The notes below the pieces were generated by a model, which did no database searches, had not been told where the DNA came from, and saw only the letters and a list, made by a program, of their open reading frames with translations. Shown piece by piece: positions 13,366 through 42,975 of a DNA stretch of 42,975 nucleotides (position 1 is its first letter; every line of letters starts with the position of its first letter). Source of the stretch: Salinivirgaceae bacterium (lineage in GTDB: Bacteria > Bacteroidota > Bacteroidia > Bacteroidales > SZUA-534); NCBI GenBank assembly GCA_024405635.1, contig JAKSOL010000025.1:1-42975 (forward strand), written 5' to 3'. The position numbers were made by a program, and so were the translations under genes.

Positions 13366-13368
13366 ATT

Positions 13369-13626
13369 ATGGAAGAATTGATTGAAAAATTGAAAGGTCA
13401 ACTTATTGAAGAGTTGAACTTGGAAGAAGTAACTCCAGCCGACATTGATGCCGAAGCACCTTTGTTTGGCGATGGCGGTTTGGGTTTAGATTCAATTGAC
13501 GCTTTGGAAATCATTTTGATTCTTGAGCGTAACTACGGTATTAAAATTGAAAATCCAGCTCAAGGAAAAGAAATTTTCTACTCAGTAAAAACTCTTGCTG
13601 AATACATTACCAAAAACCAAAAGTAA
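13369..13626 (+). CDS. Acyl carrier protein
   Basis: GLGLDSIDALE phosphopantetheine site; acidic, 85 aa. Confidence 0.93.
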   Translation: MEELIEKLKGQLIEELNLEEVTPADIDAEAPLFGDGGLGLDSIDALEIILILERNYGIKIENPAQGKEIFYSVKTLAEYITKNQK

Positions 13627-14808: not shown

Positions 14809-15695
14809 TTACACCAGTTTACATACGCAGCACTGCATCCATTCATAGCGATGGACAAGCACAAGGCAATGCCAAACGGGCCGTTGAACCCGATTACAAA
14901 GAGGTTATTACCGATGCAGGTTTACGACGCCGAATGAGTCGTGCAGTAAAAATGGGCGTTTACAGCGCACTTACTTGTTTGGCCGATACATCAAGCGATA
15001 GTGTTGGTGGCATTATTACAGCAACAGGATTAGGTTGCTTGGCCGACACCGAAAAGTTTATGAAGTCGATTGTTGACAATAACGAGCAACTTTTAACTCC
15101 CACACCATTCATTCAGTCAACCTTTAACACCATTGGCGGACAAGTGGCATTGTTGCGTAAAATTCACGCTTACAACGTAACATACGTTCATCGTGCATTG
15201 AGCGTTGAAAGTGCTTTGATTGATGCCGTGATGCACATTGCCGAGGGAGCTGACAATATACTTTTGGGCGCTGTTGACGAGATTACCGAATCGTCGGTTG
15301 ATATTCAACAACGCATGGGTATGTTGCGCAATAACGCAGCAGGCGAGGGCTCGCAATTCTTTTTGCTGAGTCGCAATAGTAACGGTTGCGTGGCCCAAAT
15401 AACCGACATCAGCACTCGCCGCGGGGCAATTACTCAAACCGATTTTGCTACTTGGGTCGATTCTTTTTTAAGCAACAATAACGTTGACAAAACCGATTTG
15501 GTTGTGCTTAATGGTTCAAAACAAGTATTAACAAACGCAATAGACTTTAAAAACCAGTGTGGCGAATATTTTACTGCGGTGGCCTTTGCATTGTGGCAAG
15601 CCGTTGAGCAAATAAAATCCGGCGCACGCAATGTGCTGATAGCTAATAGCTTTCAAAATACAAACCATTCACTTATTCTGATAAAGGCTTTATGA
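14805..15695 (+). CDS. Chain-length-factor-like KS partner
   Basis: RRRMSRAVKMG and PTPFIQSTFNT; lacks the KS catalytic motifs. Confidence 0.82.
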   Translation: MITPVYIRSTASIHSDGQAQGNAKRAVEPDYKEVITDAGLRRRMSRAVKMGVYSALTCLADTSSDSVGGIITATGLGCLADTEKFMKSIVDNNEQLLTPTPFIQSTFNTIGGQVALLRKIHAYNVTYVHRALSVESALIDAVMHIAEGADNILLGAVDEITESSVDIQQRMGMLRNNAAGEGSQFFLLSRNSNGCVAQITDISTRRGAITQTDFATWVDSFLSNNNVDKTDLVVLNGSKQVLTNAIDFKNQCGEYFTAVAFALWQAVEQIKSGARNVLIANSFQNTNHSLILIKAL

Positions 15696-16360
15696 TAATA
15701 AGTGCCATTTTGCTCGCTCTGCTGGCATTTTTGGTGTACGCATCAGCTTGCATCAAAAGTCAGATTTATGTGAGAGCAACGTGTCATATACCTACAACCG
15801 AAAACTGTGTTTTCCTGACATTTGACGATGGCCCCGATGCCGAACAAACGCCACAAGTGTTAGATGTATTGAAGAACAATAATGTTTCTGCTACTTTTTT
15901 TTGTGTAGGTAATAAAATTGAGCAAAATGCAGAGTTGGTGAAAAAAATGGTAGCCGAAGGTCACACTATTGGAATGCACACATACGCTCACAATTGGCGT
16001 TTTACCATTGCAAATGCCAATAAAGTGAAATTCGATTTGCAACAATGTCAAAGTATAATTAGGAAAGTGTGCGGATTTGATTGTGTTTTGTTTCGCCCAC
16101 CATTTGGAGTTACAAATCCTAGTATGGCAAAATCGTTGCGAATAATGGGCATTAAAACCGTTGGATGGACTATTCGCACATTTGATACCAATGGAAAATC
16201 AGACGAAAAACTGCTGCAACGAATTGAAAAACAACTTACTCCAGGCGCAATAATCCTTTTGCACGATCGTTTACCAAATTCGGCACAACGTTTGCAAAAA
16301 GTAATTGAACTAATACGCGCCAAAGGTTACACAATAGGAAATTTAGCAAAGTATTTATAA
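15692..16360 (+). CDS. Polysaccharide deacetylase (NodB/CE4)
   Basis: LTFDDGP, HTYAH, FRPPFG, ILLHD; N-terminal TM. Confidence 0.9.
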   Translation: MIISAILLALLAFLVYASACIKSQIYVRATCHIPTTENCVFLTFDDGPDAEQTPQVLDVLKNNNVSATFFCVGNKIEQNAELVKKMVAEGHTIGMHTYAHNWRFTIANANKVKFDLQQCQSIIRKVCGFDCVLFRPPFGVTNPSMAKSLRIMGIKTVGWTIRTFDTNGKSDEKLLQRIEKQLTPGAIILLHDRLPNSAQRLQKVIELIRAKGYTIGNLAKYL

Positions 16361-16379
16361 TATGCACAACACATTGAAT

Positions 16380-17006
16380 ATGAGAAATATAGTAGCAATA
16401 ATCTTACTTTTGACTTCATTTGCGCTATCGGCACAAAACAAACCAGTTGCCAATGTTGATGAGTTTAAGCACCGACTAGCAAACGAGGCAAAAAACATAA
16501 AATCAATTGAAAGCCGTTTTGTTCAGAATAAGTACCTTGAAGTGTTTGACGAGCAGGTGAAATCAACGGGAACATTTCGCTATCAAGAATCGGATAAAAT
16601 TAGTTTTGCCTATGATAAACCAGTTGACTACCTGATGGTTATAAACGGTGGTCGCATTAAAATTGAGGCCGATGGCAAAAAAAGCACAATGAATCTTGGC
16701 TCAAACCAAATGGCAAATGGTATTCAAAGTATGATGGTTGCTTGCGTAACTGGCCAACTTGATGCAATTGAATCAGACTACACAGTTAATTACTTTGAAA
16801 ACGACAAATTTTACTCGGTGGAAATAGAACCCAAAAAGGCTGCTATAAAATCGTACATCAGCAACATTAAAATTGAACTAAATAGAGTTACAATGATGGT
16901 TGAAACCCTGCGTCTCACCGAACAAGGAAACAATTATACCGAGTACCAATTTCAAAATCCAAAGTACAACGTAACATTTGGTCAATCGCAATTCAGTGTT
17001 GAATAG
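16380..17006 (+). CDS. LolA-like outer-membrane lipoprotein carrier protein
   Basis: Signal peptide; SRFVQNKYL..STGTFRY..YDKPVDYLMVING; position in the cluster. Confidence 0.8.
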   Translation: MRNIVAIILLLTSFALSAQNKPVANVDEFKHRLANEAKNIKSIESRFVQNKYLEVFDEQVKSTGTFRYQESDKISFAYDKPVDYLMVINGGRIKIEADGKKSTMNLGSNQMANGIQSMMVACVTGQLDAIESDYTVNYFENDKFYSVEIEPKKAAIKSYISNIKIELNRVTMMVETLRLTEQGNNYTEYQFQNPKYNVTFGQSQFSVE

Positions 17007-17024
17007 GTTATAAATTATTAGCCT

Positions 17025-17507
17025 TTGATTAGCATAAAACCACATATTGCCGTAATTATTCTGCTATTGACAACCAACATTGCGTTGGCTCAACAACCAT
17101 TGATTGACGCTAGCCAGCAGTCGCGTAAATTCAATATGCAGTTCGATGTTAAGAAAAACCATTTGAGCGGAATGCTCATAAGCCGAAAAATGCCCGATGG
17201 TAACGTGCGATTAGTGGCAACATCGTATTTTGGAATGTCGATTTTTGATTTTACGCTGGCCGATACTATGGTAGTGAATCAGTGCATCGACCCACTCAAA
17301 CGCCGCAGTGTGCTTAAGCTAATTGAACGCGATTTTAAACCCGTTTTCGTTGACAAATCGGTATTGAAAAGACGAAAGAAACACACCAACTTTGAAGCCT
17401 ATAAACGAGGACACTTTTTGGGCAAAGCCAAATTCGATGTGTTAAAAGATGAATTATCAATTAGGCATTCGCTTTTGCGCATGTCAATTAAAATAAACGA
17501 ACTGTAA
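17025..17507 (+). CDS. Hypothetical exported protein of the polyene cluster
   Basis: Signal peptide; LSGMLI, TSYFGMSIFDF; coupled to the next gene. Confidence 0.65.
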   Translation: MISIKPHIAVIILLLTTNIALAQQPLIDASQQSRKFNMQFDVKKNHLSGMLISRKMPDGNVRLVATSYFGMSIFDFTLADTMVVNQCIDPLKRRSVLKLIERDFKPVFVDKSVLKRRKKHTNFEAYKRGHFLGKAKFDVLKDELSIRHSLLRMSIKINEL

Positions 17508-17881
17508 TGCTAATAGAAAACTTTTACCGCACGCTTGCAACAACTAGCACCAACGGAACATGGACAGTTAACTTGAAACTAAACGCCGAGCATGATATTT
17601 TTAAAGGCCATTTTCCTGAAACTCCAGTGGTTCCGGGCGTTTGCCTAATGCTTATGATAAAAGAGAGCGCAGAACAAATTGTGGGCCGCAAACTGCAGTA
17701 CTCGCAGGTGAGTAGTTGCAAATTTGTGTCGGTGGTTAATCCAGTAATCGACTCTGAAATAAGCTTTGCAATAACACCTACAGTTGCCGACGACGGATTG
17801 TTGCAACTTACAGCCGAAGGAACTGCCAGCGCGGGAACTTTCATAAAGGTAAAAGCCAAATTAATTGATAGCACTTTATGA
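17507..17881 (+). CDS. FabZ/FabA-like dehydratase
   Basis: HDIFKGHFPETPVVPGVC. Confidence 0.88.
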   Translation: MLIENFYRTLATTSTNGTWTVNLKLNAEHDIFKGHFPETPVVPGVCLMLMIKESAEQIVGRKLQYSQVSSCKFVSVVNPVIDSEISFAITPTVADDGLLQLTAEGTASAGTFIKVKAKLIDSTL

Positions 17882-19083
17882 ATCACGAACCAGCATACTG
17901 GCAGCAACAGTTAAAGCAACTTAATGTTGTGGTTGTGTTGCCAACCTACAATAATGGTGGCACACTAGCTACTGTTATTGACCAAGTGCGCCAATATGCC
18001 ACCGACATTATTGTTGTGAACGATGGTTGTACCGACAATACTGCTGAAATTCTTGAATCGCGTTCCCAATACATCAGTGTTATTACACATGCAACCAATC
18101 AAGGCAAAGGAGTAGCCTTGCAAAATGCACTAATGCAAGCTAAGCAACGAGGTTACCGTTACGCCATTACAATGGACACTGATGGACAGCATTTTGCAAG
18201 CGATATTCCAACTTTTGTTGAAGAGATTGTTGCAACTCCTGATTCGTTGCTTGTTGGATCGCGAAACTTGGCAGCCAACAATATGCCAGGCAAAAACACA
18301 TTTGCCAATCGCTTTTCAAACTTTTGGTATAAAACCGAAACAGGCATAAATCTAAGCGATACTCAATCAGGATTCCGAATCTATCCAGTGCAGTTGCTTA
18401 ATGTGGGCAAGTGGTATTACACCACAAAGTACGAATTTGAACTCGAAGCATTAGTTTATGCGGCATGGAGTGGCATACAAGTTCGCAACATTCCTGTAAA
18501 TGTTTATTATCCACCGCAAGACGAACGAGTGTCGCATTTTCGACCCGGTCGCGATTTTACCCGCATCAGCATACTAAACACCATATTGGTTCTTGTTGCT
18601 TTACTTTGGATATACCCACGCAATTTTTTTCGAAAACTTTCGTGGGAAAGCATAAAAGGGTTTGTTAGGCGTAACATAACCCAATCTCACGAAAGTAATT
18701 TACGCATTTCGTCGGCAGTGGCGCTTGGCGTGTTTTTTGGTATAGTGCCAATATGGGGCTGGCAAATGGTAACGGCTTTTTTTATAGCACATTTGCTAAA
18801 ACTAAACAAGGTTATTACACTAGTTGCATCAAACATTAGTTTGCCGCCAATCATTCCGTTTTTACTATACGGAAGTTATTATACAGGTTGCCTTTTGTTA
18901 GGTCAGTCGCCCGACATACTATTTTCTGGCATCTCGGTTGAGGTGTTAAAAGCGGTTGCCTTACCTTACATTTTAGGAAGTGTGGTTTTTGCTGCTATTT
19001 GCGCAGTTGCGTTTGGCGGACTAGTGTGGTTGTTGCTTACCATTTGTCGTCGTAAGCCCGCTGATATTGTTTTGAACGAATAG
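17878..19083 (+). CDS. GT2 glycosyltransferase fused to a DUF2062-like membrane domain
   Basis: VLPTYNN, NDGCTD, MDTDGQH, DTQSGFR; C-terminal TMs with GVFFGIVPIWGWQ. Confidence 0.88.
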   Translation: MNHEPAYWQQQLKQLNVVVVLPTYNNGGTLATVIDQVRQYATDIIVVNDGCTDNTAEILESRSQYISVITHATNQGKGVALQNALMQAKQRGYRYAITMDTDGQHFASDIPTFVEEIVATPDSLLVGSRNLAANNMPGKNTFANRFSNFWYKTETGINLSDTQSGFRIYPVQLLNVGKWYYTTKYEFELEALVYAAWSGIQVRNIPVNVYYPPQDERVSHFRPGRDFTRISILNTILVLVALLWIYPRNFFRKLSWESIKGFVRRNITQSHESNLRISSAVALGVFFGIVPIWGWQMVTAFFIAHLLKLNKVITLVASNISLPPIIPFLLYGSYYTGCLLLGQSPDILFSGISVEVLKAVALPYILGSVVFAAICAVAFGGLVWLLLTICRRKPADIVLNE

Positions 19084-19109
19084 ATTAACCCACATAATCG
19101 TAATCATAA

Positions 19110-20159
19110 ATGAAAAAACTACTAATAGTACCATTGTTAGCGTTGGCCTTGCAATCGATGGCTCAAGAGGGAATAATTCGTAAGCACATCGATGGTAATT
19201 TTTATTCAACCCCAATTGTTACCAACGAAAACAAAGTGGTAATTGCATCACACAACAAGCACATTTATATGCTCGACTCGGTTGGAAATGTAACATCTGA
19301 TTATAAAACCAACGGTTGGGTGCACGCTACTCCAAAACTTATTGGCGATACAATTATTGGTATAGGAAGTTACGATGGTCGTTTTTATTTCTTTCAGCCC
19401 AACGGTCAGTTTATTAAGAAAATTAAACCTGGAGGCCGAATTTTTACCGAGCCGGTTGAAATGGGCAGCAACCTTATAGCTTTTGGAAACAATCGCGGCA
19501 AAGTGGTGTTTTACAATATGCACGCCGATTCAATTTACCGTGCAAAAGTGTCGCGTATGGTTCATGGCGGACCAAAACGGTTGGCCGACGGTCGCTTGGC
19601 TATCGGCTCAAATAGTAAGCGAATTTATTTGGTCGATTCGGCTGCCAATGTTCAGTATAAATACAAAACTCATGGTTGGATTATGCACTCAAAACCAACC
19701 GAAACAACCGATAGCTTGATAGTTGTTGGTAGTTACGACAACAACGTTTATGCACTTAACCAACAAGCCGAATTGGTTTGGTATTTTAAAACCGAAGGTC
19801 GCATTCACAGCAATATTGTGCAACTAAGCAACGGTTTGCTAGTGTTTGGCTCGTGGGACGGATATGTATATTTTATTGATGCAAACGGGCAATTGGTAAA
19901 CAAGTATAAAACTGGCGCAAAAGTTGTGTCGTCGCCAGCAATTGTGACAGACAACATGTTGGCTATCAGTTCGTTTGATGGTAATATGTACCTGTTTGAC
20001 TTTAGCGGAAAAATGTTAGGCAAGGTCAATTTGGGATTCCGAATTTTCAGCACACCAATAGTAATGCGCAACGGAACGGTGTTTAACTGTACAATGCAAG
20101 GCGATATGGTTTTTGTAACACCGCAAGCTTTGCGTGAAATTGTTGGAGCCACTGAGTAA
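19110..20159 (+). CDS. Exported PQQ/BamB-like beta-propeller protein
   Basis: Signal peptide and eight ~40-aa repeats (NFYSTP, WVHATP, RIFTEP, MVHGGP, IMHSKP, RIHSNI, KVVSSP, RIFSTP) with GSxDG turns. Confidence 0.8.
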   Translation: MKKLLIVPLLALALQSMAQEGIIRKHIDGNFYSTPIVTNENKVVIASHNKHIYMLDSVGNVTSDYKTNGWVHATPKLIGDTIIGIGSYDGRFYFFQPNGQFIKKIKPGGRIFTEPVEMGSNLIAFGNNRGKVVFYNMHADSIYRAKVSRMVHGGPKRLADGRLAIGSNSKRIYLVDSAANVQYKYKTHGWIMHSKPTETTDSLIVVGSYDNNVYALNQQAELVWYFKTEGRIHSNIVQLSNGLLVFGSWDGYVYFIDANGQLVNKYKTGAKVVSSPAIVTDNMLAISSFDGNMYLFDFSGKMLGKVNLGFRIFSTPIVMRNGTVFNCTMQGDMVFVTPQALREIVGATE

Positions 20160-29034: not shown

Positions 29035-29184
29035 TTAATGAAAGGTTTTTTATTCTTATGAAAAGTTTTTTCGGTCTAAAAGTAAGTTTTTATTGAAAAA
29101 ATGTACACTTTTATTTTTCTGTTTTAAAAGACTTGTTGTTTGGTTTCAACAAGGTATTTTAGGGCACTGCAAAAAGTAACGATT

Positions 29185-31872
29185 ATGAGAATTAAATTAA
29201 AACTCAGTTCGCGCATCTTCCTATCGGTAATGGGAGTGGCTTTTATTGTTATATTAACCACTATAGCGCTGGTAAACAGTCAGTTCCGCGGAGCGTCGCA
29301 AGTAACAATCAATACGCAATCAGAGTCGTCAATTGATATTTTGAAGGCTCGTTTTGACAATACAATTTTGGCCGAAGAGGAAAAAATTGAGCAAATGGCG
29401 CGCATTGTTGAAAGCACTTTGATGCTTGCCGATTTTGAATCGAGTCAGCAATATTTGACAAAAGTGATGCTGGCAGCAGTTGAAACAAACCGTAACTGGG
29501 CCTATGTTTGGTTGAGTTTGAAAAACAGTTTTGCAATGCCAACTGCCGACCCTGGCCGTGTTCAAATTCAAGTTGAATACACTGCAATGGGCGCGCGTCC
29601 TCGTACAAGCAACATTCCCGAAGACCGCGATAACTTTAGTTTACCTTACTTTGTTTGCCTCGATTCTGCAAAAATCATGCTCTCAGAGCCTGAGTATGTT
29701 TCATTCGATGGTTTAGCACAACGCAAAGTGCTAAAATCGAGTCTTATGTATCCTTTGCGCGACAATAGTGGCGATTTGATAGGCGTTTTTGGCATCGATA
29801 TTAAATTGGACACCCTACAAGGTTTGGCTACTGAACTAGGTCGCAAAACCGATATTTCGCTTATGCTTATGTCGGCAAACGACAAAGTGATTACTCATAC
29901 CAATAGTAGCAAAGTCGATTTGAATATTAAAGATGCCGAGTCGGCATTACATAAAACCCTTTCAAAATTCAATACAAACGATACGGCTTTTGTGCTTTAC
30001 GATCAAAATGGAGACGACAGCGTATATTGTTCGGTTCGTTCTGTTGATTTGCATGGTTTGTGCGCCGATTGGCGTGTGATTTCAACAGCCAAGGTTGAGG
30101 CGGTTGATCGCATAGCGTCAAGTTCAAAAGCTGGTCTTACCAAAATTCTTTGCATTGGATTCTTGGTTCTTATTGGTGTCGTTTTCCTTTACACAATAAG
30201 CCTTATCACTTCAATAGGCAAAGTGTCAAATACCATTGAGATAATGTCAACCGGACAAGTTGATAATCAACTGCACATAAAAACACTTGGGGTTGATGTA
30301 TTGGGGCAAATGGTAGATTCAACTAACAAAGTGCTTGACGGAATGTTGCAGGTTACAAAATTTGCAGAGGAGATAGGCAATGGTAACTTTAACTACAAGT
30401 TTGAACCACTCAGCAAAAGCGATGCGTTGGGAAATTCAATTGTAGGCATGCGCGATAGCTTGCAATTAGCACAAAAAGAGGAAGATGATCGCCGCATTGA
30501 GGAAGAACATTTAAACTGGGCCTCAAGTGGTGTAAACATATTTAACCGAGTGATGCGCCAAGACAACCTTAATCTTAAGACATTGTCAATGGCTATAGTT
30601 GAAAATCTGGTTAACTATTTGGGCGCGCAAATGGGAGGTTTCTACATTTTGAGCGAGGATAAACAATCGCTTGAACTGACTGCTCAACTTGGTTTCTCAA
30701 TCGAAAAATTGAACAAAAAAGAAATTGCCCCAGGCGATGGCCTAGTAGGTCGTACATTGCTCGAAAAAGAAACAATATTTATTAGTGATATTCCTGCCGA
30801 TACCGCAAAAATTGGATCGGGACTTGGAACTTCGTTGCCAAAATCGGCAATGTCGGTTCCATTAATCAACAACAAAGAACTGACTGGCGTTATTGAGTTG
30901 TATTCGTTCAAAATGTTTGAGCCATATCAAATTCAGTTTGTTGAAAAAATAGCCGAAACAGTTGCATCTAATATTGTAACAGTTAGGGCAAACGCCACAA
31001 CAAAAGAATTGCTTGAAGAGTCGGAACGAAACGCAAACGACATTAAACAACAAGAGAGCGTCCTTACTCAAAATATGCAAGAGATGCGTATGAAACAAGA
31101 GGAAGACGATATTAAGCAAGGCGCAATGTCCAACACCATTGATTGCTTGCGTAACTCAATGCCAATGATTGAATACAGCATTGATGGCAAAATAACCAAA
31201 GTGAACAAAAAATTTGTCGATTTGGTTAAAACACGCAGCGACAAGTTTGTTGGCAAATACGACTTTGGTCGCAACTACCTAAACGAAAAACAACAAGATG
31301 AGCACGATCGTTTTTGGATATCGCTACGTCAGGGCAATGTTATGCAACTTGACGAGGAGTATGCAGTAGGCGACGAAAAAGTATATGTGCACAAAATGTA
31401 TGTGCCAATAACTAACGACAACGGAATTGATAGCGTTGTAGCGGTATGCTACGACAATACAGAGTTGAAACAACTTGAGGCAAAACTCGAGGCAATTCAA
31501 AATGGTGAATTTGAAACCAACGACACTCAAAAACCTGAATTTATATCGCTCAATATCGACAAGATTAGAGAAGCATATCAAGATGATGAAAAAATATCGG
31601 CAGTGCTGAGCAAATACCGCACACAAATTACCGAAGAACTTGAGGCTCTAACCGTTGCACTACACGATGGCGACATGAAAGAGGTTAAAACCCAAGCTAA
31701 ACTAATCCGAACCAAAATGGAGAACATGGGCGAAACCGCAGTTTCAGGAAAAATGAGCGATATACTTGCCGCAATAGCCGACGGCAACACCGACAACATT
31801 TCGGTAATTTTTGAATCGGCAAAAGTACGCTGGTCGTTGGTGGCAAGCGAAATGGCAAAACTGATTATGTAA
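29185..31872 (+). CDS. Membrane sensor: TM-Cache-TM-HAMP-GAF-coiled coil-PAS-Hpt-like
   Basis: LSEP..YPLRD..IGVFGIDIKL (Cache), FAEEIGNGNF..DALGNSIVGMR (HAMP), GDGLVG..SVPLI..GVIEL (GAF), IEYSIDGKITKVNKKF..FWISL (PAS). Confidence 0.8.
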   Translation: MRIKLKLSSRIFLSVMGVAFIVILTTIALVNSQFRGASQVTINTQSESSIDILKARFDNTILAEEEKIEQMARIVESTLMLADFESSQQYLTKVMLAAVETNRNWAYVWLSLKNSFAMPTADPGRVQIQVEYTAMGARPRTSNIPEDRDNFSLPYFVCLDSAKIMLSEPEYVSFDGLAQRKVLKSSLMYPLRDNSGDLIGVFGIDIKLDTLQGLATELGRKTDISLMLMSANDKVITHTNSSKVDLNIKDAESALHKTLSKFNTNDTAFVLYDQNGDDSVYCSVRSVDLHGLCADWRVISTAKVEAVDRIASSSKAGLTKILCIGFLVLIGVVFLYTISLITSIGKVSNTIEIMSTGQVDNQLHIKTLGVDVLGQMVDSTNKVLDGMLQVTKFAEEIGNGNFNYKFEPLSKSDALGNSIVGMRDSLQLAQKEEDDRRIEEEHLNWASSGVNIFNRVMRQDNLNLKTLSMAIVENLVNYLGAQMGGFYILSEDKQSLELTAQLGFSIEKLNKKEIAPGDGLVGRTLLEKETIFISDIPADTAKIGSGLGTSLPKSAMSVPLINNKELTGVIELYSFKMFEPYQIQFVEKIAETVASNIVTVRANATTKELLEESERNANDIKQQESVLTQNMQEMRMKQEEDDIKQGAMSNTIDCLRNSMPMIEYSIDGKITKVNKKFVDLVKTRSDKFVGKYDFGRNYLNEKQQDEHDRFWISLRQGNVMQLDEEYAVGDEKVYVHKMYVPITNDNGIDSVVAVCYDNTELKQLEAKLEAIQNGEFETNDTQKPEFISLNIDKIREAYQDDEKISAVLSKYRTQITEELEALTVALHDGDMKEVKTQAKLIRTKMENMGETAVSGKMSDILAAIADGNTDNISVIFESAKVRWSLVASEMAKLIM

Positions 31873-31888
31873 CGAAAACCTCATCACA

Positions 31889-34243
31889 ATGGCACGAAAA
31901 GGTATTTCTTTATACGGAAAAATGATGCTCGTCCTTTCGGGAGCATCTGTAATAGTGTTTTCAGCCGCATTGGGCTACGTTATTCAAAATATGAGCCGCC
32001 AGTTTATTGAAACGGTTCAAACCGAGCAAGAGTGCAAGGCCACAAACATTATTCATCGCGTTGAATCGGAAGTTAACGTATATACAAGCAAAGTGCAAAC
32101 AATGGCAAACATTTTGGCACAATATGAGCGTTTGGAAAATGTTGACCGCCGCAAATACTTCGTCGATGTGCTACAAACCGAACTTGGTTACGACAAGTCG
32201 GCAATGTCGCTTTGGACACTTTGGAACCCCGAGGTGCTTGATGGACTTGACGAAGAGATTGACGAATCTACCGGTCAACCTTACGGAACTTTTCGTGTTG
32301 CATATAAACGCAATGGTTTTAACGATGTGCAAAAAGTGCCAGTTAACCCTGGCTTTTTGTCGGGCCGTGGATTAGGTTTCTTGCGCGACACCAACAAAGT
32401 TTCGGTTGTCGGTCCTTATACTTTTCGTTACAGCCACAAAAAAGGAACTGTTAACCTGCTTACTATTGGAGCTCCAATTATGCAATGGGACTCTTTTGTT
32501 GGCACAGTGGGAATGGACTTTGATTTAGCTAGTTTAGCCGACACTCTTAAATCTATTTCCAAAGAAAGTAACTTCAATATCTATCTTTCGGCCGATAGCT
32601 TAATTGTTTACCACCCCGACACTTCGTTAGTTTGCCAACACGATAGCCTTGTAATGCCAGCTGGTTGCGACTCAATAGGCTATACAACATTCAACGCACT
32701 CGATATGGACAAGAAAATGGCAAATTTCTATTTCTCGCCAATTTATTTGAACCACACCGATGCTCGTTGGAAAGTAATGGTAAGCTCACAATTGCGCAAT
32801 GTTTATTCGCAGACCAATAAATATATGGTAGCCACCATTTTTATTGTAATCATAGGCATTGTGGTGATGATAATACTAATGTCGATGTTGTGCAAAGAGG
32901 TATCGCAATCGTTAATGCGCATCAACAACCGTTTGGGAAATATGTCGCTTGGCATTTTGGCGCATCGCGAAAAACGTAACGTATTGTTCCACGACGAAAT
33001 ATCAAGCCTTGCTGAAGCTCTTGATACTTTGGTCGATGGCTTGTTTGCATCAGTCGATTTTGCAAACGAAATTGGTAAAGGTAACCTTGAGGCCGAATAT
33101 AAACTATTGAGCGACGACGATACGCTAGGCAAATCGTTGATGGCTATGCAAAAAAGTTTGAAAAACTCGCAAGTTGAAAAAGACAAGAAAAAGAAACTTG
33201 ACGACCAACGTAACTGGATTAACCATGGTTTGGCAGAGTTTGGCGACCTTATCCGTCAAGACAATAGCGACATGAACATATTTGCTGCTAATGTTTTGTC
33301 TGAATTGATAAAATACTGCGAAATGGCACAAGGAGCAATTTACCTGCGCACCGATGACATGGAGTATGACGAAGGTGTAGGATTTAAATACGAGTGTAAA
33401 GCAGCCTTTGCCTATGGAAAACAAATTATGCTTGATAAAGTAATTGATGCAAAAGATAGCGTTTTGGGACAATCGGTTGAGGATCAAAAAGTTATTTACC
33501 TTGAAAATGTTCCAGAGCGATACGTAACACTAAATCAAGGAACTAAAGACAATGCCCGTCCACGCAACGTGCTGGTTGTTCCAATGGTGGTTAACGATGT
33601 TACATTTGGAGCCGTTGAGTTGGTGTCGTACAAGCCAATTGAGCAATATTGCATCGATTTTGTAACTCACCTTTGCGAAAACATTGCTTCGGTTATTTCA
33701 AGCATCAATACAAACAAAAACAACGAGCAACTGCTTGAAAAATCGAAATACCAAAAAGAAGAGCTTGAGCAACACGAGGAAGAAATGCAACAGAACCTTG
33801 AGGAAATGCGCGCAACACAAGAGGAGAGCGATGCTCGTCAATCAATTCTAATGTCGCAAATATCGTCGTACTACCGCATCCTAAATGTTGCCGAACTTGA
33901 TGCCGAAGGTCGAATTACCAATATATCGTCAAATTTGGCCGACATATTGGGCTTGTCGGTTGCAAATGCACGTGGTGTGCTTTACTCGTCGGTAACAACT
34001 GGTAGCGAAACCGAGCGCCGCGAGTTTGAAGACGATTGGGCAGAGTTGCTACAAAACGAGAGCAACAACCGTTTGGTTCGTACCATTGTGCGCAACAAAA
34101 AACTATGGTTAAACGAGCATTATTATGTGGTTCATTTGCCACAAGCTGACGACCGAATTTTTGTTGTGGTTGAAAACCAAAACGCAATGGCAAACGTTGA
34201 GGAAAAAATTCAACTCGAAATTGAAAGCCGCAACGAGGAATAG
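31889..34243 (+). CDS. Membrane sensor paralog: TM-Cache-TM-HAMP-GAF-coiled coil-PAS-like
   Basis: GPY..TIGAPI..VGTVGMDFDL, FANEIGKGNL..DTLGKSLMAM, VVPMV..GAVEL, QHEEEMQQNLEEMRATQEE, AELDAEGRIT. Confidence 0.8.
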   Translation: MARKGISLYGKMMLVLSGASVIVFSAALGYVIQNMSRQFIETVQTEQECKATNIIHRVESEVNVYTSKVQTMANILAQYERLENVDRRKYFVDVLQTELGYDKSAMSLWTLWNPEVLDGLDEEIDESTGQPYGTFRVAYKRNGFNDVQKVPVNPGFLSGRGLGFLRDTNKVSVVGPYTFRYSHKKGTVNLLTIGAPIMQWDSFVGTVGMDFDLASLADTLKSISKESNFNIYLSADSLIVYHPDTSLVCQHDSLVMPAGCDSIGYTTFNALDMDKKMANFYFSPIYLNHTDARWKVMVSSQLRNVYSQTNKYMVATIFIVIIGIVVMIILMSMLCKEVSQSLMRINNRLGNMSLGILAHREKRNVLFHDEISSLAEALDTLVDGLFASVDFANEIGKGNLEAEYKLLSDDDTLGKSLMAMQKSLKNSQVEKDKKKKLDDQRNWINHGLAEFGDLIRQDNSDMNIFAANVLSELIKYCEMAQGAIYLRTDDMEYDEGVGFKYECKAAFAYGKQIMLDKVIDAKDSVLGQSVEDQKVIYLENVPERYVTLNQGTKDNARPRNVLVVPMVVNDVTFGAVELVSYKPIEQYCIDFVTHLCENIASVISSINTNKNNEQLLEKSKYQKEELEQHEEEMQQNLEEMRATQEESDARQSILMSQISSYYRILNVAELDAEGRITNISSNLADILGLSVANARGVLYSSVTTGSETERREFEDDWAELLQNESNNRLVRTIVRNKKLWLNEHYYVVHLPQADDRIFVVVENQNAMANVEEKIQLEIESRNEE

Positions 34244-34269
34244 TTAACTGCTAAATATTAGATATACGT

Positions 34270-34303
34270 AAAGAGTCAGTTTGTAAAAACTGGCTCTTTT
34301 TTT
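34270..34303 (+). terminator. Intrinsic terminator
   Basis: AAAGAGTCAGTTT..AAACTGGCTCTTT followed by a T-run. Confidence 0.8.
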
Positions 34304-34336
34304 ATCTAAAATGTTGGTTATGAGCAAATGAGAGAC

Positions 34337-34354
34337 AACGTTTTGTTGGGCAAT
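34337..34354 (+). repeat. Direct repeat, left copy
   Basis: AACGTTTTGTTGGGCAAT; 17/18 identical to 39537-39554. Confidence 0.75.
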
Positions 34355-34442
34355 TAATGCAGAACTAGGTTCTGAAACCGATTGTTAATGTTTGAAAGAA
34401 AAGTTTTTTCATAAATTTTATCATATAAGTTGCACAGCATTG

Positions 34443-34456
34443 TTTTTTTTTTTTTT
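34443..34456 (+). repeat. Poly-T(14) homopolymer upstream of the peptide genes
   Basis: Fourteen consecutive T. Confidence 0.9.
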
Positions 34457-34491
34457 GTACGTCATTCTTGCGCAAATTTAGACTAACCCTA

Positions 34492-34521
34492 TTTACACTA
34501 TGGTGAAAAAATTAGTGTAAA
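34492..34521. promoter_or_regulatory. Inverted repeat (candidate operator or 5' hairpin)
   Basis: TTTACACTA-N12-TAGTGTAAA, ending 22 bp before the first peptide ATG. Confidence 0.5.
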
Positions 34522-34543
34522 AACCATTTTAGAATCAACAATT

Positions 34544-34651
34544 ATGAAAAAATTAACAAAAAGCCAAATGAAGCGAATTTACGCTGGAGCAGCAAAATCA
34601 GCATTTGCAGTACGCGGTCGTCCTCCTCAAGACGCCCAAAAAAATAAATAA
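34544..34651 (+). CDS. Double-glycine-type leader peptide precursor 1 (35 aa)
   Basis: Manual translation MKKLTKSQMKRIYAG|AAKSAFAVRGRPPQDAQKNK. The leader is homologous to precursor 2 and a C39 transporter lies nearby. Confidence 0.8.
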   Translation: MKKLTKSQMKRIYAGAAKSAFAVRGRPPQDAQKNK

Positions 34652-34667
34652 TCCAAAGTCTATAGTA

Positions 34668-34793
34668 ATGAAGAAATTATCAAAATCACAGCAGACTCAA
34701 ATTTTTGGAGGTGCTAAGGCTAAATCCGTTGGATATTGCAAAAAATGCAAGAAAAACGAATGCTCTTGCAACGATGGCAAATACAAAAGATGA
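34668..34793 (+). CDS. Double-glycine leader peptide precursor 2 (41 aa, Cys/Lys-rich core)
   Basis: MKKLSKSQQTQIFGG|AKAKSVGYCKKCKKNECSCNDGKYKR; ATG at 34668. Confidence 0.85.
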   Translation: MKKLSKSQQTQIFGGAKAKSVGYCKKCKKNECSCNDGKYKR

Positions 34794-34852
34794 TAATTCG
34801 ACCATGTTTTTTTTAAGAACAAATGCTATAAATAATAGCTTTGTGTAATAAC

Positions 34853-34903
34853 AAAGAGGGTATGTTAAAACTGACACAGTTGCGATATGCCCTCTTTATT
34901 TTT
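34853..34903 (+). terminator. Strong stem-loop between precursors and export genes (attenuator/mRNA stabiliser)
   Basis: AAAGAGGGTATGTT / GATATGCCCTCTTT stem, inner AACTG/CAGTT stem, then ATTTTT. Confidence 0.7.
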
Positions 34904-34919
34904 CCCAAAATCACCATAT

Positions 34920-37277
34920 ATGAAAAATTTTATTGTCAATCTCGTTATTTTATTACTTGCTAATGTAGTTAATGGTCAAACCATTATGGGAACTATTGCC
35001 GGTGCTGAAAAATCAAAAGTTATTAGTGCTGTAGTTATTTTACAAAATACAGACTCGCTGATGGTTGAAGCAACAACAACTGACACTGTAGGCCAATTTG
35101 TATTTAAAAACGAGTTGCAAAGTGGGCAAATACTAATTCAACACGTTGCGTATGAGAATAAAATTATATCATTCACCAATGGTGATTACTCTCAGTTAAA
35201 GCAAATTGTTTTAACCGAAAAAAGTAACCAGCTTGACGATATTACAATAAATGCGCAAGCTCATGTAGTAAAAATAGAAGGCTCAAAAATTAAAGTTAAC
35301 ACAGAAAAAATTAAAGAACGTAAGGCAGTGTCGTCAGCATTCGATGTATTAAAGTACACGCCTGGTGTTATTGTTAATGGTGACGAAGTGAAATTGCTTG
35401 GTGCCAAGCAACTTACGTTAATACTAAATGGAAAGAAAACACAATTATCAAACGACGATATAATTGAAAAACTGAAAATTCTTTCAGCCGAAAAAGTATC
35501 TAACATTGAAATTATGTACAAGGCACCATCGAAATACGACGTGTATGGTGCTATTATTAACATTGTTATTGATAAACAGCAACGAGAATCGCCTGTAACT
35601 GCTGAATTGAGGTCAAATTTTGAACAACAATATTTTGGCTATTATAAAGCATCAGAAGATATAGAATATCAAGGCGAAAAGTTAGGTTTAGAACTAATGT
35701 TAAACCAACGAGGAGGAGGGCTATATACAGGCTCTAGCGAATGTATTGAATACGAACTAAACGATACAAAAACAACAATTGCTATTGATAACAACAATCC
35801 AGAAGACTATTTGTCGGGTAGACTAAAATTTGGCTTGGATTATAATTTTTCCGACGATATAAAACTGTCGTCATATTACTATGGAAAACGGTCGATTGAC
35901 AACTATAAATATAGAGCAAATACCAACATTGGCTTACAAAACAATATAGACACAACAGAGTCAGACATTTTAAGCCGCAATAAAAAAGACAATATCATTA
36001 CAAACCATAACGCCTATATATCGTTAGATGCAAATAGTTTGTCGTTATCAGTTGATTATGTTGACTATGAGCAAGAAATAAATTCAAATTACAGCGAAAC
36101 TATTGGCACAACAAATACAGATTCATATCAAAGCACAACAAGTCAAGGGGTAGACCGACTACAAATATTATCAAACTACGATATTGTAATAAATGACCAA
36201 TGGGAAATGAATGTTGGAGCAAATGCAACATTTTCAAAATCGAATACTGAAATTAGTTACAAACGGCCTAACAATTCAAATGCTTTCGAATTTGATGCCT
36301 CCAAATACCAATTGAATATCCAAAAAGAGCGAGATTTTTCTTTGTTCACCGAATCGTATATAACTCTATTCGATAGTTTGACATTTGATATAGAACTTAA
36401 AGCCTCTTGGTTTAAATCAGACTATGAGCATAACTCTCAAAAGAAAGCACTTTGGAACAACTTTATAGTCTATCCAAGCATAAATGTTATGTGGCAACTG
36501 CAAAATAGCAGCGCATTTGATTTTACGTTCTATATGCAAAGACATTATCCAAGTTACTATTCTACAAACACCGATACTACACAAACAAGTGCAATTGTGT
36601 CGGAAGTTGGAAATCCAGAACTAAAACCAGAAATGGAATACTACACCGAAGTTACATATATACTTAATGGATTATATACATTTGGCTTGTATGGAACTTA
36701 TAGCGACAATCCCTATATATCAGCACCATACATAGATCCTCAAAACATGCAAGAGTTAACACAATCAGTTAACTTAGACTATGATTTTGAAGCAGGAGTG
36801 CAAGCGTACATACCTTTTTCTTATGGATGTTGGGATGCATCTTTAACAAGTTTCCTTTTTTGGCACAAACAATATCTTGATGATTTTCATGGAGCATCAA
36901 TTAATCAATCAAAATTGGCGCTAACACTAGATTTGTCAAATTCGTTTAGTTTTTTCGATAACAAATTAGCTTGTAACGTAGATGCTCATTACAAAAGCAA
37001 AGATATTGATGGCCTTTACAAGATGAGTAATGGCTATGGTTTAGACCTAGGGTTAAGATGGAAAATATTAAACAATTTAACACTAACATCGTATTGGGAG
37101 AACGTGTTTGGAACGTACAACCCTAATCCTGCCACTATGAATTTCAATGGTATTAAAAGTCAATACACTGATAAATCGCAAGAGTGTAGCAATTTTGTTA
37201 TTAGTCTATTGTGGCGCATAGGCAACTTTAAACCTAAAGAGATGAAAGGCGGAGACACTGGTAGAATGGGCATATAA
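34920..37277 (+). CDS. TonB-dependent-receptor-like outer-membrane beta-barrel with N-terminal carboxypeptidase-regulatory-like and plug domains
   Basis: Signal peptide; TTTDTVGQF..QHVAYE..QLDDITI; plug DVLKYTPGV..IEIMYKAPSKYD..IINIV; GNPELKPE; alternating aromatic strands. Confidence 0.82.
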   Translation: MKNFIVNLVILLLANVVNGQTIMGTIAGAEKSKVISAVVILQNTDSLMVEATTTDTVGQFVFKNELQSGQILIQHVAYENKIISFTNGDYSQLKQIVLTEKSNQLDDITINAQAHVVKIEGSKIKVNTEKIKERKAVSSAFDVLKYTPGVIVNGDEVKLLGAKQLTLILNGKKTQLSNDDIIEKLKILSAEKVSNIEIMYKAPSKYDVYGAIINIVIDKQQRESPVTAELRSNFEQQYFGYYKASEDIEYQGEKLGLELMLNQRGGGLYTGSSECIEYELNDTKTTIAIDNNNPEDYLSGRLKFGLDYNFSDDIKLSSYYYGKRSIDNYKYRANTNIGLQNNIDTTESDILSRNKKDNIITNHNAYISLDANSLSLSVDYVDYEQEINSNYSETIGTTNTDSYQSTTSQGVDRLQILSNYDIVINDQWEMNVGANATFSKSNTEISYKRPNNSNAFEFDASKYQLNIQKERDFSLFTESYITLFDSLTFDIELKASWFKSDYEHNSQKKALWNNFIVYPSINVMWQLQNSSAFDFTFYMQRHYPSYYSTNTDTTQTSAIVSEVGNPELKPEMEYYTEVTYILNGLYTFGLYGTYSDNPYISAPYIDPQNMQELTQSVNLDYDFEAGVQAYIPFSYGCWDASLTSFLFWHKQYLDDFHGASINQSKLALTLDLSNSFSFFDNKLACNVDAHYKSKDIDGLYKMSNGYGLDLGLRWKILNNLTLTSYWENVFGTYNPNPATMNFNGIKSQYTDKSQECSNFVISLLWRIGNFKPKEMKGGDTGRMGI

Positions 37278-37279
37278 AT

Positions 37280-39451
37280 ATGAGTATTTTGTTTCCTTTA
37301 GTCATGCAAGCAGACTCGTGCGATTGTGGGCCTGCATGCTTGTCAATGATTTCTAAGTACTATGGATTATCAATAAATTACGAGCAACTAAAAAACAATT
37401 GCCATGGTTCTCGTGTAGGAGTAAGCTTATTCGCGTTAAATAACGAAGCTCAACGATTAGGGTTTAATACAGAGGCAGTGCAAGCAACTCTTCCAGAACT
37501 CTCAAAAAATGGAAACTTCCCTTGTATTGCGTTTTGGAATCAGGAGCATTTTATTGTAATAAGAAAGATAACTAAAAATAAAGTATTAGTAGCAGACCCA
37601 GGAAAAGGTTTTATTACGTATTCGCATGAAGATTTTTCTATAGGATGGTGTAATAACGATGAAGGAGAGGGCATTGCTCTTTTCCTTGAAAAAACTTCGC
37701 AAGTTCAAAGATTTTCTAAACAGCATTCTGTTTCATACGTAGAACAGATAATAAAGTATGTCAGTAAATACAAACACGATTTTGCCAAAATGGCGATGCT
37801 TTTGCTTTTTACTAATTGTGTTCAATTGGCATTTCCGTATATCACACAATATATTGTAGATAAAGGAATTAACTCAAAAGATATTAATTTTATTGTAATT
37901 CTACTATCAGCACAAGCTCTATTGATAATTAGTCAAGCTATTGCTGACTTTTTTCGTTATTGGACATCGTTAAAAATTAATGCAAAAATCAATATATCAA
38001 TGATTTCTGAGTTTATTGATAAGTTGCTCCATTTGCCAATGACATTTTTTGAAACTAAAACAACTGCCGATATACTTCAAAGAGTGTTTGACTTTGAAAG
38101 AATAGATTCTTTTATAAACACTCATGCGCTATCACTAATTTTCTCATGCTCTACGCTAATAATGTTTAGTGGTGTTCTCTTTTGTTATTCAGGTAAAATC
38201 TTACTGATATTTTTATTTGGAAGTTGCATATACTTCGGTTGGATTATTCTATTCCTAAACCGCAGAAAAGTATTAGACAACTGCATATTTGAGCAGCAAG
38301 CTAAGACTGAACTGGATATGATTGAAATAGCCGAAGGAGCTTCTGAAATACGTACAAATAATGGGCAGAAGTATTTTAGAAATAAGTGGGAAAAAGCACA
38401 AAACAAAATATTTGAATTAAAATTCAAGCAATTGGCATTGGAACAAAAAAGCGATATAGGCTCAACAGTGATAATTGAAGGCATGAATCTTTTCATTACA
38501 TTCATAACTGCATCAATGGTTATAAGTGAAACATTGACTTTTGGGGCAATGCTTGCCATTCAATTTGTAATAGGGCAGTTAAATAGTCCTCTTCATCAAA
38601 TGATAAACTTTATTAATAGTCTTCAAGATGCAAAAATTAGTTTTGAAAGAATAGATTCCATAACTAATCAAGATGATGAAAATTATAATGAGGTAATTAA
38701 AACAGATAAATCTATAGCAAAAGGAATTACATTAAGGAATGTGTCATTTGCATACGATTCAGCGCCAGATGATATTATTTTGAATAATATTTCAATTCAC
38801 ATACCGCAAAATAAAACTACTGCTATTGTTGGAGCTAGTGGTAGTGGAAAGTCAACTCTTTTGAAACTCATACTCCAATACTATAAACCCAATGAGGGCG
38901 AAATACTAATAAATAATGAGCAACTTAATGGTTTTAGCATAGAAAATTTTCGGAACAATTGTGGTTGTGTTATGCAAGATGGCTACATATTTACTGATAC
39001 TATAACTCGCAACATTGTACCTAATAATGAACCAGTAGATTTTGATAGACTTATAAAGTCTGTACAAACTGCATGTATTTTTGATTTTATTGATTCGCTA
39101 CCTTTAAAATTTGGAACAAAGATTGGACAAGGAGGCATATCACTAAGCAAGGGGCAAAAACAACGAATACTAATAGCAAGGGCTATTTACCGAGATGTTA
39201 AATATCTTTTCTTTGATGAGGCAACTAATTCGTTAGATGCAATTAATGAAAAGCACATAAGTACACAATTGGCAAAAATATTTGACAATAAAACTGTGAT
39301 AATTATAGCTCATAGACTTAGTACAATAAAAGAAGCAGACCAAATTATTGTATTAAATAAAGGAAGAGTTGAAGAAACAGGTTCACATCAAACTCTTCTT
39401 GACGCGAAAGGTTATTATTACAAATTAATTCAAAACCAAATTGACTCATAA
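37280..39451 (+). CDS. Peptidase C39 domain-containing ABC transporter (PCAT)
   Basis: QADSCDCGPACL (Cys), WNQEHF (His), VADP (Asp); TMD; GASGSGKST, LSKGQKQR, FFDEATN, AHRLST. Confidence 0.95.
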   Translation: MSILFPLVMQADSCDCGPACLSMISKYYGLSINYEQLKNNCHGSRVGVSLFALNNEAQRLGFNTEAVQATLPELSKNGNFPCIAFWNQEHFIVIRKITKNKVLVADPGKGFITYSHEDFSIGWCNNDEGEGIALFLEKTSQVQRFSKQHSVSYVEQIIKYVSKYKHDFAKMAMLLLFTNCVQLAFPYITQYIVDKGINSKDINFIVILLSAQALLIISQAIADFFRYWTSLKINAKINISMISEFIDKLLHLPMTFFETKTTADILQRVFDFERIDSFINTHALSLIFSCSTLIMFSGVLFCYSGKILLIFLFGSCIYFGWIILFLNRRKVLDNCIFEQQAKTELDMIEIAEGASEIRTNNGQKYFRNKWEKAQNKIFELKFKQLALEQKSDIGSTVIIEGMNLFITFITASMVISETLTFGAMLAIQFVIGQLNSPLHQMINFINSLQDAKISFERIDSITNQDDENYNEVIKTDKSIAKGITLRNVSFAYDSAPDDIILNNISIHIPQNKTTAIVGASGSGKSTLLKLILQYYKPNEGEILINNEQLNGFSIENFRNNCGCVMQDGYIFTDTITRNIVPNNEPVDFDRLIKSVQTACIFDFIDSLPLKFGTKIGQGGISLSKGQKQRILIARAIYRDVKYLFFDEATNSLDAINEKHISTQLAKIFDNKTVIIIAHRLSTIKEADQIIVLNKGRVEETGSHQTLLDAKGYYYKLIQNQIDS

Positions 39452-39536
39452 GTCAATAATAAATCGTTGTACGGCATAAGTGTTAGTAGAATAATTTTAA
39501 GAATCATATAGCGGAAACTAAAGCATTTATCATATT

Positions 39537-39554
39537 AACATTTTGTTGGGCAAT
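39537..39554 (+). repeat. Direct repeat, right copy
   Basis: AACATTTTGTTGGGCAAT. Confidence 0.75.
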
Positions 39555-39847
39555 AATTAGTATTCTCAACTACCAAATTTCTTCCCATACATCTCTATTT
39601 CATGGCTGGCGAGTGCTGGCAATATCAACAAAGTTGAGGTTAATTCATGCTTATATGTCAGAAGTTGTTAGTTTGCTCAAAACAAAGACATAAATTTTAG
39701 ATAATTGTGGAGACATGCTACTCTAAGTTACCCGTAAGTTAAATTGTCTCATTAAGGGGAAAATATCAACCAAAAAAATTTCTACTTTCGCCCGTGGCTG
39801 AACAATTCGGCATAAAATCAAAACATACAAATCATTTTTCTCTGCAA

Positions 39848-42902: not shown

Positions 42903-42903
42903 G

Positions 42904-42975
42904 TGGTGCCACCGGGAATCGAACCAGGGACACAAGGATTTTCAGTCCTTTGCTCTACCAACTGAGCTATGGCAC
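42904..42975 (-). tRNA. trnF: tRNA-Phe(GAA); first base cut off by the window end, CCA not encoded
   Basis: Reverse complement GTGCCATAGCTCAGTTGGTAGAGCAAAGGACTGAAAATCCTTGTGTCCCTGGTTCGATTCCCGGTGGCACCA. Confidence 0.97.

Follow-up and report, generated by a model that had tools for sequence, protein, structure and literature searches.

A four-gene cassette of two leader peptides, a TonB-dependent-transporter-like barrel and a C39 transporter in a Salinivirgaceae genome

The 42,975-nucleotide contig JAKSOL010000025.1 of a Salinivirgaceae bacterium (assembly GCA_024405635.1, order Bacteroidales), in its full length referred to here as the window, carries a compact cassette of four plus-strand genes, identified from the list of open reading frames (ORFs) and the sequence. 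These genes span approximately 34.3-39.5 kb (5.2 kb) and encode two small peptides with double-glycine (GG)-type leaders, a TonB-dependent-transporter-like barrel and a C39 peptidase-containing ATP-binding cassette (ABC) transporter (PCAT). An island of low GC content coincides with the four genes, and the cassette is best explained as a self-contained, foreign-looking unit that was acquired horizontally. Its components are:

34544..34651, + strand: peptide 1, 35 aa; 15-aa leader ending in AG and 20-aa core, net charge +4, no Cys
34668..34793, + strand: peptide 2, 41 aa; 15-aa leader ending in GG and 26-aa core, net charge +7, four Cys
34853..34907, + strand: strong hairpin and U-run separating the peptide genes from the barrel gene
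34917..37277, + strand: TonB-dependent-transporter-like barrel (OMP_b-brl_3) with signal peptide, N-terminal beta-sandwich, TonB-box-like linker, predicted plug, barrel and short conserved tail
37280..39451, + strand: PCAT, 723 aa; C39 peptidase (residues 1-124), ABC membrane domain and ABC ATPase
34300..39500, no strand: low-GC island with the whole cassette inside; GC 0.31-0.34 against 0.40-0.46 in both flanks; limits approximate

An initial annotation of the window had described the two peptides as the products of tandem ORFs with homologous leaders, and this description holds. The leaders agree at 9 of 15 positions. At four of these (K2, S7 with AGC versus TCA, Q8 and G15) the codons differ although the amino acid is the same, which points to selection acting on the protein. 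Both predicted cores are strongly hydrophilic, and the ATG of peptide 2 lies inside a longer listed ORF (34605-34793). The two adjoining ORFs, with AG and GG at their predicted cleavage sites, are the kind of nearby substrate with a double-glycine-type leader that characterises loci of the PCAT family. When a loose GG-leader pattern was run over the whole 2.66-Mb genome it returned 26 ORFs, among which only peptides 1 and 2 resemble each other or a Bacteroidales-type leader. Neither peptide has a Pfam match, or an NCBIfam match at E<=0.1, and a word-based search found no homolog of peptide 2.

The PCAT starts 2 nt past the barrel stop codon and is the sole C39 match in this 99.8%-complete genome. 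It aligns with PCAT1 over its full length (residues 7-717, E 2.8e-101) and matches the Pfam families PF03412 (2.8e-35), PF00664 (1.3e-30) and PF00005 (1.9e-28). In the alignment the active site of PCAT1 (4ry2, 7n87) has its counterparts in Q10, C16, H90 and D106, C16 falling on the Cys that was mutated to Ala in 7n87, so that the earlier description of an intact Cys/His/Asp set is borne out. As is typical of the family, the C39 domain with its catalytic residues, the membrane domain and the ATPase share one chain; the protein reaches no NCBIfam equivalog cut-off (best TIGR03796, 420.7 versus 853.3).

The ORF listed for the barrel runs from 34887 to 37277 (796 aa), yet its start is probably the ATG at 34917, because the orthologs align from there and because the hairpin upstream covers 34887. 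Pfam assigns the protein to OMP_b-brl_3 (PF14905, 4e-30), and a profile of 90 relatives matches the SusC-homolog N-terminal domain (1e-16) as well as the plug and barrel of Cir/PfeA (2e-7 to 1e-6). In the AlphaFold2 (AF2) model (pLDDT 89.9, pTM 0.79) a beta-sandwich (residues 33-108) is followed by a low-confidence linker (110-127), a plug (~128-230) and the barrel (237-778). Oar, a barrel of Myxococcus discussed below, also has an N-terminal domain that is carboxypeptidase-regulatory-like. Searched with Foldseek, the model matches best to PhuR, FhuE, Cir and FepA, all of them TonB-dependent transporters (E 4e-22 to 4e-19), with HasR also among the best hits. The Pfam Plug family is unmatched in the window's barrel and weakly matched in orthologs (1.4e-4, 3.3e-4). 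Profile, AF2 and Foldseek agree with the proposed plugged, TonB-receptor-like barrel, the plug being assigned by homology and model, and the protein can be read as a TonB-dependent transporter with a predicted N-terminal plug. Between the N-terminal domain and the plug lies a conserved Q-L-[DE]-x-[VI]-T-[VI] motif, aligned to the L-D-E-V-V-V of a SusC homolog, which makes it a candidate TonB box; the genome itself has three TonB_C genes. A word-based homolog search with the barrel returned only the query, and the plasmid collection held solo barrel homologs only (21-27% identity).

A further feature of the barrel is a short tail after the last strand (37245-37277, residues ~780-796), which is conserved in the family and modelled with low confidence. 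Across 90 diverse sequences just four columns are invariant, and R793 of the tail occupies one of them. Canonical TonB-dependent transporters generally stop at the last strand.

Several components are absent from the cassette. The initial annotation had listed a maturase, HlyD, TolC and an immunity gene as missing, and the ORF list, Pfam and a HlyD hidden Markov model (HMM) indeed revealed no gene for HlyD, TolC or a maturase, and no ORF resembling a membrane immunity protein, in 34244-39794. The HMM was built from 17 Bacteroidales bacteriocin-type HlyD proteins and applied at E<=1e-3; with it, neither a bacteriocin-type HlyD nor the shortened mini-HlyD described below was detected in the cassette, in its own genome or in 10 related loci. 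The ABC exporter is thus without the HlyD-family membrane fusion protein (MFP) partner that type I secretion has. A search for orphan components elsewhere in the genome, as had been advised, found three MFP/TolC sets, each beside its own RND or MacB pump, and two radical SAM (rSAM) genes of the SPASM type.

These two SPASM genes score below every peptide-maturase cut-off, and their neighbours encode acetyltransferases, dehydrogenases and glycosyltransferases. YcaO, the mark of YcaO-modified ribosomally synthesised peptides with post-translational modifications (RiPPs), is absent from the genome in searches with PF02624 (0 matches) and in tblastn with a relative's YcaO. The island likewise contains no TIGR04149 precursor and no maturase, as the GG-Bacteroidales rSAM system (TIGR04148/04149/04150) would have. 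Because the genome is without YcaO and its two SPASM rSAM genes lie among glycosyltransferase genes, the peptides are probably unmodified, in agreement with the earlier proposal.

The hairpin at 34853-34907 has a minimum free energy of -24.6 kcal/mol (z -5.2), a stability equalled in 0 of 200 shuffled sequences. A GC-rich hairpin with a T-run stands directly 3′ of the peptide gene in all five related loci examined. Judged by the behaviour of operons for bacteriocins and RiPPs, the window's hairpin is likely to be a leaky terminator that would yield an excess of peptide message.

Comparison with related genomes shows that the arrangement recurs. Orthologs of the barrel (36-38% identity) were found in a single related genus, where 4 of 8 genomes have one, and otherwise only in rumen metagenome-assembled genomes (MAGs) and metagenome contigs that bear the label Salinivirgaceae or uncultured Bacteroidetes. 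The barrel lies directly before a PCAT in the window, in six genome loci (L014, L015, L016, L018, L019, L020) and in four contigs (L037, L038, L041, L045), of which L038 is near-identical to L018, the other metagenome contigs not being deduplicated. The related PCATs are 51-56% identical to that of the window, and the gap between barrel and PCAT is 0-82 nt in the six genome loci as compared to 2 nt here. Searching upstream of such pairs, a check proposed at the outset, uncovered GG peptides with short cationic cores in five of the six genome loci; in L020 there was none within 1.8 kb upstream, and the contig ends inside the PCAT gene. Two tandem GG peptides, as in the window, are found in L038. 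The barrel had been called dedicated; it is a real partner of the PCAT, in a module conserved in relatives.

Some of these loci carry maturases. YcaO stands directly before the barrel in two genome loci and two contigs (L014, L016, L044, L046), and L014 and L046 have an rSAM gene besides YcaO. A rule by which maturase-free loci have short leaders and YcaO-linked loci long ones was considered and abandoned: three YcaO-linked leaders measure 22-30 aa, but that of L044, directly before YcaO, measures 15 aa. Three other loci (L015, L018, L019), lying among housekeeping genes, show the same minimal form as the cassette of the window, and genome G012 (98% complete) combines two intact cassettes free of maturases with an absence of YcaO. 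Since L015, L018 and L019 are equally minimal and G012 maintains two cassettes without YcaO, the minimal cassette is a stable state rather than a one-off remnant.

This bears on the explanation that the locus is the residue of a RiPP cluster of the YcaO type, or a chance neighbourhood, with peptides that are no longer made or active and a barrel that serves some unrelated uptake. The start of the peptide 1 core, K-S-A-F-A-V-R-G-R, does resemble the pattern [KR]RSG-hhh-T-[GK]R of five related cores, and in four of the five loci with cores of this type the core stands beside YcaO. Yet all four frames are intact, the PCAT active site is kept, conservation extends to the 2-nt coupling and the hairpin design, the leaders differ by synonymous codons in a way that indicates selection at the protein level, and G012 is free of YcaO in a 98%-complete genome. 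A decayed remnant, which had been named as the outcome that would overturn the initial annotation, is at variance with the recurrence of the HlyD-less barrel-PCAT module in relatives and with the two intact maturase-free copies in G012, and we give this explanation only a very small probability.

A broader view comes from the order as a whole, in which 143 of 401 genomes encode PCATs 40-46% identical to the window's. Sixty-eight PCAT loci of the order were collected and their flanks classed by Pfam, by our own HlyD and barrel HMMs and by BLAST, with the following counts:

All PCAT loci (68), adjoining HlyD class: 53 full-length-type, 11 mini-HlyD (~150-230 aa), 4 not assessable
Barrel-linked PCATs (10 loci): 3 full HlyD, 7 mini-HlyD
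Barrel-less PCATs (52 loci): 50 full HlyD, 2 mini-HlyD
Examples of mini-HlyD: L079 10837-11286; L083 4360-4863; L082 7276-7782; L081 6636-7316; L047 6326-6808

Two further mini-HlyD loci were without upstream coverage. Linkage to a barrel is associated with the HlyD class at a Fisher p of 8e-6, the related genomes in the sample not being independent. The mini-HlyD consists of an N-terminal membrane anchor and a C-terminal beta-barrel domain and lacks the lipoyl and coiled-coil middle. This missing lipoyl/coiled-coil part is the part of the MFP that reaches TolC. Mini-HlyD proteins have no Pfam or NCBIfam match at the thresholds used, and the Atlas contains several Bacteroidota clusters of them, with 50-79 members of ~160 aa. 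A barrel-PCAT-mini-HlyD arrangement is also present in L047, a grasp-with-spasm locus of the related genus. The chemistries found with barrel-linked PCATs comprise YcaO, grasp-with-spasm (ATP-grasp/SPASM), GG-Bacteroidales rSAM/pseudo-rSAM, Cys-rich rSAM and no maturase at all. The window's clade, without any MFP, is the far end of this series from full-length to mini-HlyD. Because the other PCAT-linked barrels form two separate groups in the barrel tree (FastTree, with long branches), the pairing of barrel and PCAT probably arose more than once.

Two side observations belong to these loci. In the barrel-PCAT-mini locus L073/L081 (G038:C3) the PCAT is broken by a TAA stop and may be a pseudogene. 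In some rSAM-type clusters a second PF14905 barrel lies a few kb upstream of the barrel-PCAT pair (L079 39-2399, L080 15209-17845).

The reading that we favour, at slightly less than an even chance, is that the PCAT trims and pumps cationic peptides that carry no modification, and that the barrel performs the outer-membrane step in place of an MFP-TolC duct. The peptide genes would give rise to an abundant short message ending at the leaky hairpin, whereas read-through would provide the messages for barrel and PCAT, translationally close across the 2-nt gap. In line with established PCAT biology, the C39 domain can be expected to cut after the AG and GG of the 15-aa leaders and the ABC part to carry the cores across the inner membrane. 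From there the adjoining TonB-dependent-transporter-like barrel, and not an MFP-TolC duct, would take over. By analogy with Oar and its cargo PopC, TonB might pull the plug and let the peptide exit. The strongest clue that the barrel takes the outer-membrane step is that, wherever there is a barrel, the MFP has lost the part that reaches TolC.

Once released, the peptides would most likely act as narrow-spectrum antagonists of other bacteria, like bacteroidetocins or microcins. An antagonistic role fits best with the hypervariable cationic cores behind conserved leaders, the presence of several cassettes per genome and the patchy distribution. Metal scavenging, also raised in the initial annotation, finds little support: peptide 2 with its four Cys and one His-rich relative would fit, and most related cores are without Cys or His.

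Extended to the phylum, the comparison suggests a scenario that we put forward tentatively and would sooner doubt than assert: a TonB-dependent-transporter-like barrel may have repeatedly replaced MFP-TolC in Bacteroidota PCAT exporters, the MFP first shrinking to a stub without its coiled coil and then being lost altogether. The cassette would be the end point of this process, a two-protein, TonB-powered route for leader-cleaved peptides from cytoplasm to medium, and the orphan barrels discussed next would confer an expulsion-type immunity on non-producers.

Several observations weigh against export through the barrel. Every TonB-dependent transporter among the fold matches listed is an importer. 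Intact barrel orthologs without a peptide or PCAT in the fetched flanks are present in five MAGs (L017/L022, L025, L027, L028, L031). These orphans occupy at least three places in the tree, nested among paired barrels, evolve at a ratio of non-synonymous to synonymous substitution rates (dN/dS) of 0.06-0.11 versus 0.10 for paired barrels, and keep all domains equally, including the TonB-box-like motif. Since intact orphans are under purifying selection and one of their carriers, G020 (98% complete), has no C39 gene, a barrel evidently works without a PCAT. When the order was sampled with the barrel as the starting point, 18 homologs (E<=1e-60) in other families were obtained, 17 of which are solitary among housekeeping genes, and the window's barrel clade nests among such solo homologs. 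Full HlyD is kept in three barrel-linked PCAT loci (L068, L090, L115), and genomes with two cassettes carry two barrels, as would suit cargo-specific recognition in either direction. Finally, a barrel is not strictly needed for exit, because bacteroidetocins leave with a PCAT and no barrel (PMC6671954).

Much of this would be expected if the barrel were a TonB-dependent uptake receptor for the mature peptide, which would then act as a signal, a shared good or a re-imported product and cross the outer membrane outward by another route, with receptor-only genomes eavesdropping or cheating. Fold and profile matches are all to importers, the TonB-box-like motif is conserved, solo relatives are the rule and each cassette has one barrel. 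Purifying selection on the orphan barrels, of which one belongs to a genome without a PCAT, keeps this reading alive, and with it the receptor-swap immunity considered below. Methanobactin and some lasso-peptide clusters also encode a TonB-dependent importer. Uptake, however, offers no reason for the truncation or loss of the MFP at precisely those loci that have a barrel, it requires a separate exit route, and the cassette has no conserved inner-membrane importer, binding protein or sensor. We judge it unlikely, while granting it serious consideration.

Solo barrels may have yet another role. In non-producers they could be the gate or target of the peptide, the cassette's barrel being an insensitive, protective allele. 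This would be analogous to BSAP-1, whose gene adjoins a homolog of its outer-membrane barrel receptor that protects the producer (PMC12853789). The cassette has no other immunity gene, and the barrel is patchy in the related genus (4 of 8 genomes searched). Moreover, L028, with a barrel alone, occupies the same site as L015, with peptide, barrel and PCAT, between the same aldolase and lipoprotein genes. Yet the L015 and L028 barrels differ by a synonymous divergence (dS) of 1.29, inside the range of the flanking genes (0.50-1.36), a comparison that carries little information and gives no sign of an allele swap, the dN/dS of the barrel is not raised, and the link between barrel and mini-MFP would have no explanation. 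Such receptor-swap immunity is improbable in our estimation. Export of the cleaved peptides through the barrel would account for the MFP series that both of these alternatives leave aside.

Two further features lie at the upstream edge of the cassette:

34270..34299, + strand: terminator-like hairpin, 13-pair stem followed by a T-run, which closes the upstream sensor gene and forms the left boundary of the cassette
34492..34521, no strand: perfect inverted repeat, arms of 9 bp separated by 12 nt, lying 22 nt 5′ of peptide 1

As RNA, the inverted repeat shows no unusual stability (z -1.0); judged by its sequence, it may be an operator or other protein-binding site. An Rfam scan of 34200-35000 gave sub-threshold chance matches only. 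The promoter scan was sigma-70 based and ill-suited to Bacteroidota, and a TTTG...TAAATTTT pair near 34391-34419 is a weak promoter lead only.

Just upstream of the cassette, 29140-31872 and 31889-34243 encode tandem paralogous large dCache/GAF proteins, the first also with PAS, without a recognised output domain. They were considered as dedicated sensors and set aside, as they neighbour the module in no related locus. Elsewhere in the window, a run of ketoacyl-synthase-like genes (~11240-20159) includes Ketoacyl-synt_2, a GT2+DUF2062 protein and a beta-propeller, and presumably resembles an aryl-polyene or flexirubin-type lipid cluster. A single protein at 984-2831 joins an adenylate/guanylate cyclase domain to an HD domain, and a tRNA-Phe gene (42903-42975) runs off the window end.

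How the cargo of Bacteroidota PCATs crosses the outer membrane is a question raised in published work, and because the cassette has no maturase, adaptor or immunity gene, it is close to the smallest natural test object for this route. The inverse link between barrel and full HlyD, together with the mini-HlyD class, would guide the annotation of many Bacteroidota peptide clusters, while loci of the maturase-free kind are missed by maturase-anchored mining tools. Should the barrel turn out to be an importer or immunity allele, the cassette would be no more than a common type of small locus for a bacteriocin or signal, with a receptor added. In the literature searched, which was incomplete and without subscription journals, we found neither a maturase-free peptide-barrel-PCAT cassette nor the association of mini-HlyD with a barrel, nor the inverse relation of barrel and full HlyD, nor the orphan barrels.

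Among the closest known systems for GG-leader export in diderms is the class II microcin/colicin V system, consisting of the PCAT CvaB, the MFP CvaA and TolC (PMC12219008). In both cases a PCAT cuts a double-glycine leader, whereas the cassette has no MFP and no TolC route and encodes a TonB-type barrel instead. For outward passage through such a barrel, Oar of Myxococcus offers a precedent: it is a TonB-dependent-transporter-like barrel that is needed for PopC secretion and allows passage from the periplasm outward, as proposed for the cassette (PMC6434023). PopC, however, is a folded protease, and Oar has no ABC partner; the likeness is one of analogy only. BSAP-1 of Bacteroides fragilis shares with the cassette a peptide or toxin gene beside an outer-membrane barrel, in its case one homologous to the target of sensitive strains, but is a MACPF toxin with a FadL-like barrel and no PCAT (PMC12853789).

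A further comparison is with the bacteroidetocins (class IIf), whose loci have been shown experimentally to suffice for toxin production with a GG peptide and a PCAT and without MFP, outer-membrane protein (OMP) or immunity gene (PMC6671954). They have in common with the cassette GG leaders of 15-16 aa, a PCAT and the absence of genes for MFP, TolC and immunity; the peptides are cationic, and the four Cys of peptide 2 equal those of bacteroidetocins, which may likewise have to cross the outer membrane (PMC6671954). Mature bacteroidetocins of 42-48 aa nonetheless contrast with cores of 20 and 26 aa, and they need a 5-transmembrane (5-TM) protein and a thiol oxidoreductase, neither of which is encoded in the cassette, where a barrel is found instead (PMC6671954). 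The window therefore fits their leader length with its 15 aa without showing the full set of a 5-TM protein, a peptide with >=2 Cys, a thiol oxidoreductase and a PCAT.

Similar layouts have also been published for loci of modified peptides. A 2023 survey found a PCAT and an OMP without MFP in four of nine Bacteroidales RiPP clusters and asked whether a distinct transport mechanism is at work (PMC10352776). These clusters, BGC6-9 (biosynthetic gene clusters), share with the cassette GG-motif precursors, a PCAT, an OMP gene and no detected MFP, but have rSAM, YcaO or LanM maturases where the cassette has none (PMC10352776). Similarly, a 2022 survey of graspetides listed PF14905 barrels among the linked families and predicted export (PMC8939145). 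Bacteroidetes graspetide loci and the cassette both place a PF14905/SusC-like barrel beside a C39 ABC transporter (PMC8939145). The former add maturases of the ATP-grasp and SPASM types, and the one such locus seen in our sample, L047, also has a mini-HlyD; neither is present in the cassette. The architecture is hence less unusual than first claimed, given these MFP-less loci (PMC6671954, PMC10352776, PMC8939145), although the minimal four-gene form stands: the overall arrangement has been partly in print since 2019, 2022 and 2023, and the maturase-free form is a new variant of it.

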